21,426 bases of DNA, taken from the NCBI RefSeq assembly GCF_003334765.1, contig NZ_QOWT01000047.1; one strand, given 5' to 3'. Source of the DNA: Escherichia coli (GTDB lineage: Bacteria; Pseudomonadota; Gammaproteobacteria; Enterobacterales; Enterobacteriaceae). Numbering within the stretch: the stretch's first letter is position 1; every line of letters begins with the position of its first letter. Under the pieces are notes generated by a model. It worked only from the letters and a program-made list of their open reading frames with translations, ran no database searches and was not told where the DNA came from. Positions 4,018 to 4,277 of this stretch are shown here, piece after piece. The position numbers and the translations under genes are program-made.

Positions 4018-4110
4018 TGATCTTACCCAGCAATAACAGCGTTACGGTGCACCACGCCTGACTGAAGAACTGCGTGCTCAGGGTTACCACTTCAACGTAA
4101 AACCGTGGCA
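4018..4110 (+). mobile_element. IS3-family insertion sequence remnant (left inverted repeat joined to an internal orfB fragment; internally deleted)
   Basis: TGATCTTACCCAGCAATA at 4018-4035 matches the IS3 left terminal repeat as recalled. It is followed directly by CAGCGTTACGGTGC.CCACGCCTGAC…CTGCGTGCTCAGGGTTACC…AACGTAAAA.CCGTGGC, which matches an internal part of the IS3 orfB gene, so most of the element is deleted. Confidence 0.7.
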
Positions 4111-4277
4111 GGAGGTCCGGACTGAAAAAACTGGTCAGGACATCATCGGCAGGGAACGCACTGCTAGTCTGTAAACTGAACCGACTGGGGCGCAGTATGT
4201 GGCATCTTGTCGTGCTGTTGGAGGAGCTGTGCGAACGTGGTATTAACTTTCGTGCTCTGGCCCAATCTATATTTGCC
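4111..4277 (+). pseudogene. Pin/Hin-type serine DNA invertase, internal fragment (pinH-like pseudogene)
   Basis: In-frame translation gives …[53 protein letters not shown]…, which aligns with the Pin-family segment …RPGLKRALKRL..GDTLVVWKLDRLGRSMKHL..LV.ELRERGINFRSLTDSIDT. The catalytic N-terminus and C-terminal HTH are missing. Confidence 0.7.

Follow-up and report, generated by a model that had tools for sequence, protein, structure and literature searches.

Serine DNA invertases of the Pin/Gin/Cin/Hin group, among them PinE of e14, the Fels-2 invertase, Mu Gin and LLS Fin, share a Resolvase core and can govern surface antigens, as exemplified by Hin, which controls flagellin. In phage LLS an invertible tail-fibre segment bounded by IR-L and IR-R is followed by the invertase Fin, which flips the tail-fibre genes, and then by 3.2 kb of cargo, an arm, attP and the integrase. 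The Fels-2 invertase is encoded on the strand opposite to ssrA and likewise adjoins tail-fibre genes, and the lambdoid prophage at ssrA of E. coli strain Esc28 displays the order tail, tfa, pin', rnlAB, arm and ssrA. Tandem arrays of decayed elements at ssrA are represented by CP4-57 with psaA in K-12 and by Fels-2 in Salmonella. IS3 is delimited by a left and a right inverted repeat of ~39 bp (TG...CA) and carries orfA and orfB, from which a DDE transposase is produced via a programmed frameshift.

Here we analyzed a stretch of 21,426 nt of E. coli DNA (hereafter the window), in particular the region between the tRNA gene ileY (1569-1641) and ssrA, which holds fused remnants of IS3 and of an invertase gene of this group. 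Over positions 78-9432 the window is 99.95% identical to MG1655, and the genes follow in the order ileY, ypjCB (split/pseudogenised), IS3-pin scar, ypjA (4679-9259) and an integrated island. The nearest described counterpart of the scar is the MG1655 pseudogene pinH (b2648), which is the same locus and maps to window positions ~4101-4340; furthermore, the RefSeq PGAP annotation places a 'recombinase family protein' missing both its N- and C-terminus at 4104-4271. The core of the IS3-pin scar is already catalogued as pinH and our additions are minor, namely the IS3 stub and the prophage framing: both annotations lack the IS3 stub (4018-4109), the left att remnant and the edge of the ypjA module. 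The features to which we refer are as follows.

3862-3935, minus strand: att-A, a pseudo ssrA 3' end with a Fels-2-type terminator arm, recognised by identity to phage attP; left bound of the relic
3936-4017, no strand assigned: spacer of 82 bp between att-A and the IS3 left end, origin not matched
4018-4035, plus strand: IS3 left inverted repeat, nt 1-18 (18/18 to IS3)
4036-4109, plus strand: internal IS3 orfB fragment, matching IS3 nt ~544-618 at 88.6%
4110-4288, plus strand: Pin-type serine invertase fragment, the pinH core (tblastn, DNA alignment, Pfam, annotation)
4291-4678, plus strand: the ypjA module's own upstream region, 89% to a minE-adjacent copy (L005 3001/3005-3359)
4495-4678, plus strand: strongly conserved non-coding element according to its diversity; candidate promoter, operator or 5' UTR
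4679-9259, plus strand: ypjA (ehaD), AIDA-type autotransporter adhesin gene (annotation, ORF)
9269-9433, minus strand: att-B, the ssrA-downstream arm with terminator and psaA; right bound of the relic

We consider the scar to be an inert fossil, consisting of pinH and an IS3 stub, that was left behind as prophage and IS debris and whose invertase likely served tail fibres, and assign to this reading a probability of roughly 0.8.

Some neighbouring features were noted in passing. The ypjCB stretch (2395-3767) is one intact ORF in some strains (e.g. loci L007, L015 and L018), and it is frameshifted or split into ypjC and ypjB in the window strain and K-12. The island to the right of psaA (9433-21426) is not CP4-57 of K-12 but a rarer element, present at full length in 66 genomes and encoding DUF6387, HTH regulators, a relaxase/mobilisation protein, an ankyrin-repeat protein and DUF4928. 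A published genomic-SELEX study lists an RpoS-holoenzyme peak between ypjA and ileY (PMC5493296). Converted from what appears to be an older MG1655 numbering, as deduced from the yfjL-yfjM spacer, the peak falls near window position 2155, upstream of ypjCB, and was dropped as a promoter signal of ypjA.

The first-pass annotation had described a scar at 4018-4277, in which an IS3 left end joins an internal orfB piece that runs into the middle of a serine-invertase gene, with neither remnant functional, about 400 bp upstream of the adhesin. Sequence comparison bears out this anatomy. The first 18 nt of the scar (TGATCTTACCCAGCAATA) reproduce positions 1-18 of the IS3 left inverted repeat, beginning with the terminal TG, as found in the intact copy that served as reference (locus L004, positions 971-988; WP_085947771.1). 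This string occurs once in the window, at a chance expectation of 0.01 even with three mismatches allowed, and is kept with one substitution in a ~10%-divergent allele. The junction from the left end into orfB reads CAGCAATAACAGCGTTACGG. From there, 4023/4036-4109 aligns with IS3 nt 531/544-618 within orfB at 88.6% identity and with a single 1-nt gap; the orfB fragment carries this 1-nt deletion, and an in-frame stop lies just upstream. As judged from these alignments, a left end is followed directly by an internal piece of orfB in the stub, the ~525 nt in between apparently having been deleted.

Since BLAST and local alignment carry the orfB match leftwards to 4023 (IS3 nt 531-618) via a common TTACCC, 4018-4109 could also be read as one contiguous, diverged piece of orfB without any IS3 left end. 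We regard this as very unlikely. Read as contiguous orfB, positions 4018-4035 match at only 11/18 (61%), compared to 88.6% elsewhere in the fragment, and seven specific convergent substitutions would be required, or an orfB naturally reading TGATCTTACCCAGCAATAACAGCG at the position of the left end; the left-end reading, which starts exactly with the TG terminus of IS3, matches at 18/18 and is expected by chance ~0.01 times or less. Taken as a left end plus an internal fragment, the stub shares with IS3 the first 18 nt unchanged and 74-88 nt of orfB at 88.6% identity. It differs in that ~92 of 1,258 nt are left and that the orfB piece is ~11% diverged from current IS3 copies. No match to the IS3 right end was obtained in 3700-4700, and orfA and the DDE catalytic region are missing, leaving neither the pair of terminal inverted repeats nor the orfA/orfB transposase that define the element.

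At 4109/4110 (within ~3 nt) orfB switches to the invertase fragment, which spans codons ~39-101 of 184. A tblastn search with e14 PinE placed residues 39-94 on 4104-4271 with 68% identity and without gap or stop (E 2e-23), the Pfam family Resolvase (PF00239) was matched over model positions 48-103 of 145 (E 4e-9), and at the DNA level 4113-4288 corresponds to pinE nt 124-303, interrupted near 4261 by a deletion of 4 nt. The homology to the family is clear and ends at codon ~94-101, the N-terminal region with the catalytic Ser10 and the C-terminal HTH both being absent. Neither the invertase remnant nor the IS3 remnant can be functional. The scar begins at 4018 as described before, whereas its end has to be moved ~11 nt further to 4288, 391 nt ahead of the ypjA ATG (4679). 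Compared with the Pin/Gin/Cin/Hin systems, the scar retains part of the Resolvase core and lacks the catalytic serine region, the HTH, crossover sites and a nearby invertible segment, and its neighbour is an autotransporter gene and not a tail-fibre gene.

All of the closest invertases are of phage or prophage origin, comprising those of Fels-2, SEN8, P2-like and Mu-like phages and pinE of e14 (68% at the amino-acid level and at most 83% at the nucleotide level), and 109 phage records were matched by the fragment. The identity to any intact invertase found does not exceed 83% at the nucleotide level and amounts to only 53% at the amino-acid level for LLS Fin.

Copies of the ssrA 3' end and attP-homologous arms flank the segment on both sides, as in remnants of ssrA-integrated prophages. 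On the left, the pseudo-ssrA 3' end of att-A (CTGCCAGC-CCACCA, ~3922-3935, minus strand) is accompanied by a terminator-like hairpin at 3888-3915, and the whole matches the attP arm of Fels-2 (nt 9-83), RE2010, SopEPhi, SEN8, 500465-1 and Cartapus at 89-91%, which would imply that a Fels-2-like element had occupied the ssrA site at an earlier time. Att-A is unannotated in every feature table retrieved for the locus, including that of MG1655. On the right, att-B ends in psaA (~9420-9433, CGCCAGC-CCACCA), which is annotated in MG1655, and is 85.5% identical to the attP or 'tmRNA pseudogene' region of phage LLS, 82-86% to phiNP and Ayreon and 91% to the ssrA-adjacent DNA of strain Esc28. The 165-bp arm (9269-9419) could itself be native ssrA-downstream DNA that was copied by phages and not phage DNA. 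Between att-A and att-B no integrase or phage structural genes are present, only the IS3 and pin fragments and ypjA. The spacer at 3936-4017 gave no phage match and no similarity to LLS or Fels-2; it may represent the integrase-side arm of a lost prophage.

With respect to gene order, the succession of pin fragment, ypjA module, arm and psaA in the window reproduces the order and strand relation of LLS and Esc28, with ypjA occupying the cargo slot. The Esc28 pin' is itself truncated (pinE nt 63-292) and is 82% identical to the pinH fragment. In Esc28 (L009/L010) the whole ileY-ypjCB-pinH-ypjA segment is missing and a complete-looking lambdoid prophage resides at ssrA, the 166-bp ssrA-downstream arm being found at both ends of the prophage region. 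As in the tandem arrays at ssrA of K-12 and Salmonella, the window displays two displaced pseudo-ssrA ends and a newer island after att-B; unlike those arrays, its relic is devoid of integrase and structural genes, and an adhesin module of chromosomal type remains besides the IS3 stub and the pin fragment. Had pin come from one Fels-2 prophage, the Fels-2-type arm of att-A would be expected on its other side; the LLS-type arm of att-B, in contrast, is placed relative to pin as expected. Given that the att-A arm appears to stem from a different, earlier occupant than the att-B arm, the phage source of pin is uncertain, with a Fels-2 phage as a possible direct donor.

The DNA between the scar and att-B is a discrete module of 5 kb (4291-9269), composed of 388 bp of upstream DNA, ypjA and 10 bp past its stop. 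Its ends recur next to minE, where 4294-4649 is matched at 89% and 8915-9269 at 96% by a decayed autotransporter (the ymgJ locus), whose left flank consists of ymgI/ymgG/ymgD and contains no invertase. The upstream part of this minE-adjacent copy was detected in ~5,290 of 5,426 genomes. Against window positions 4291-9269 the minE-adjacent copies show sharp edges (L005 3001-3713 and L024 6001-6702), and in the two strains examined (FORC_028 and PA45B) the passenger domain is deleted, 4650-8914 being missing. The closest homologues outside E. coli, those of E. albertii (74%), also adjoin minE. From the ~5,290 genomes with this copy and the position of the E. albertii homologues beside minE we deduce that the module resided first at minE and that the copy with ypjA is derived from it. 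The junction from pin to the module reads GGGGGGACGAATGCTG. Pin homology stops at 4288, 2 nt ahead of the module start at 4291, and since the two edges abut, the loss of the 3' part of pin falls together with the module's arrival.

These findings bear directly on the further proposal of the first-pass annotation that the native promoter context of ypjA had been rearranged and an ancestral invertible-switch control of the adhesin thereby lost. According to this proposal, the invertase once ran a hin- or fim-like promoter switch that phase-varied ypjA, until IS3 and deletions destroyed the control and rearranged the promoter. The proximity of the fragment, whose end is 391 nt away from the downstream ypjA ATG and which is on the same strand, and the control of surface antigens by serine invertases in some systems (Hin/flagellin) speak in its favor. 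However, the 388 bp upstream of ypjA are module DNA that recurs at the minE locus without an invertase. In addition, a search of the window with the hix/gix consensus returned a single match with three mismatches at 11277, compared to 2.1 expected, and none near ypjA, while inverted repeats of at least 14 nt bracketing the ypjA upstream region were limited to pairs at chance level. Neither the paired inverted 26-bp crossover sites of an invertible switch nor an intact recombinase in the relatives examined was found, and the nearest homologues as well as the positional ones are phage invertases, the LLS and Fels-2 genes adjoining tail fibres. Taken together, we consider a former switch of ypjA extremely unlikely and both parts of the proposal unsupported, and favor debris of a prophage whose invertase presumably acted on tail-fibre genes.

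The search for an ancestral arrangement was extended to the E. coli population. The interval 3800-4700 was recovered at a coverage of at least 80% from 3,003 of 5,426 complete E. coli genomes, the IS3-pin junction interval from 3,058 and the pin interval from 3,042, while the 5' coding region of ypjA was found in 3,083 of the 5,426. As the scar counts (3,003-3,058) are close to the ypjA count, the scar is present in practically every ypjA-bearing genome. Eleven E. coli loci, including alleles with 5-11% divergence and an O157 relative, showed one colinear structure upon inspection, as did all assemblies examined at the scar, and 20/20 IMG/VR contigs with the 31-mer upstream of ypjA carried only PinE residues 38-94 alongside. 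An intact invertase beside ypjA, which had been anticipated in relatives, was seen neither in the 5,426-genome counts nor in the 11 loci or the 20 viral contigs. Scanning beyond E. coli with the same 31-mer yielded two short contigs, which represent E. coli contamination in unrelated assemblies and bear the same scar. A protein search with the C-terminus of YpjA returned the E. albertii homologues on contigs that break inside the gene before the upstream region is reached. On one IMG/VR contig (L029) the ypjA homology ends at window position 6153, and a 3' fragment of an e14-like pinE with its neighbour gene follows ~10 kb on. This C-terminal pin fragment was discarded as a relative of pinH; it belongs to an e14-like element and looks like a separate rearrangement.

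Strain C5 contains a full-length IS3 (L006 6745-8002, 99.9% canonical) inside the pin fragment at the equivalent of 4159-4161, where a duplication of ~3 bp is visible. The combination of IS3 and 'DNA invertase' in this strain was considered as an intact ancestral state and rejected, as the alignment reveals a secondary insertion with the old IS3 stub still present. In the same strain, ypjA is also cut by another IS3-family element.

Nucleotide diversity was calculated from nine diverse alleles. The IS3 stub (0.066) and the pin fragment (0.064) are in the same range as the left intergenic DNA at 3768-4017 (0.079) and the 3' end of ypjCB (0.064); to the right, values of 0.050 for 4291-4494, 0.006 for 4495-4614 and 0.012 for 4615-4678 were obtained, followed by 0.10-0.11 for the first 900 nt of ypjA. 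The scar drifts at the level of the surrounding DNA and shows no signal of constraint. In agreement with these values, 4100-4300 was found at an identity of at least 99% in 1,632 genomes, 4480-4680 in 2,603 and 4660-6200 in 1,015.

These data also bear on the possibility that the scar is not inert and that the IS3/pin remnant supplies ypjA with a promoter, a boundary for nucleoid proteins or another cis element. Its GC content of 49-55% between AT-rich flanks of 30-40% could interrupt a silencer that prefers AT, and the scar is kept in ~3,050 genomes. Its diversity of 0.064-0.066, however, equals that of the flanking non-coding DNA, the truly conserved stretch being 4495-4678. A second, full-length IS3 is accommodated inside the pin fragment of strain C5, and no sigma-70-like site exists on the plus strand of 3700-4800. 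The retention of the scar can be ascribed to its linkage to ypjA, and a function of this kind appears very unlikely to us.

Upstream of ypjA, strong conservation of non-coding DNA is confined to one stretch on the right of the scar. A near-invariant block at ~4495-4740 extends over the 184 nt that precede the start codon of ypjA and into the codons of the signal peptide, with a diversity of 0.000-0.021 (0.006-0.012 over 4495-4678) versus 0.05-0.19 around it. No coding-like frame was recognised in 4495-4678. PGAP reports a 39-aa 'hypothetical protein' at 4495-4614 (WP_001120794.1), and the label 'ATPase' pseudogene is used in some genomes. This ORF was rejected as the cause of the conservation, given that 5/5 of its differences from the paralog change the amino acid, and probably does not represent a real gene; the other frames show stops or mixed changes. 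Rfam gave no match in 3760-4760 at either gathering or permissive thresholds, and the predicted folding of 4495-4700 was no better than that of shuffled sequences on either strand (z-scores of 0.63 and -0.55). A sigma-70 consensus is likewise missing from the block. In the dead minE copy the equivalent stretch varies at an ordinary rate, 2-3 nt per 50 differing between two strains, as would be expected of a constraint that depends on a functional ypjA. On this basis, the 184 nt may constitute an undescribed cis-regulatory element, e.g. an operator array or a 5' leader, that governs ypjA, although we put this forward tentatively, as a possibility of rather less than even odds. Control elements of ypjA, if there are any, most plausibly reside in the module's own upstream DNA, with 4495-4678 favored, and not in the scar.

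Returning to the scar as prophage and IS debris, its history may be reconstructed as follows; since no intact ancestral prophage was found at this position among the genomes examined, the order of events is a reconstruction. A temperate phage using the 3' end of ssrA would have resided between att-A (3862-3935) and att-B (~9269-9433), carrying a Pin/Gin-type invertase gene beside its tail-fibre genes, whose inversion was presumably its task. This gene would have been encoded on the strand opposite to ssrA, and a variable cargo slot would have separated it from the att arm proximal to ssrA, a few kb away. The insertion of IS3 would have followed, at a distance of 82 bp from att-A and close to the prophage end on the integrase side. 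In later deletions IS3 nt 19-543 would have been lost, and a deletion reaching from IS3 nt 619 to pin codon ~38 would have taken most of the prophage with it. Finally, the 3' half of pin and the cargo would have been replaced by the 5-kb ypjA module (4291-9269), including its 388 bp of upstream sequence; the conserved locus next to minE is the probable source of this copy. Pin would thereby have been truncated on its 5' side by an IS3-associated deletion and on its 3' side by the acquisition of the module. In a weaker variant, ypjA could be a phage 'moron' that an ssrA-integrating phage picked up at the minE locus and carried in its cargo slot.

As pinH has already been catalogued, the finding itself is of little weight, and its value lies mainly in a clean-up of the locus. 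The pinH pseudogene locus also holds an IS3 stub and sits in a stack of decayed ssrA-integrated elements, and the suggestion that an invertase phase-varied ypjA (ehaD) is removed. The gene is normally silent in laboratory strains. For studies of this silence, attention should be directed away from the scar and to the 184 nt before the start codon.
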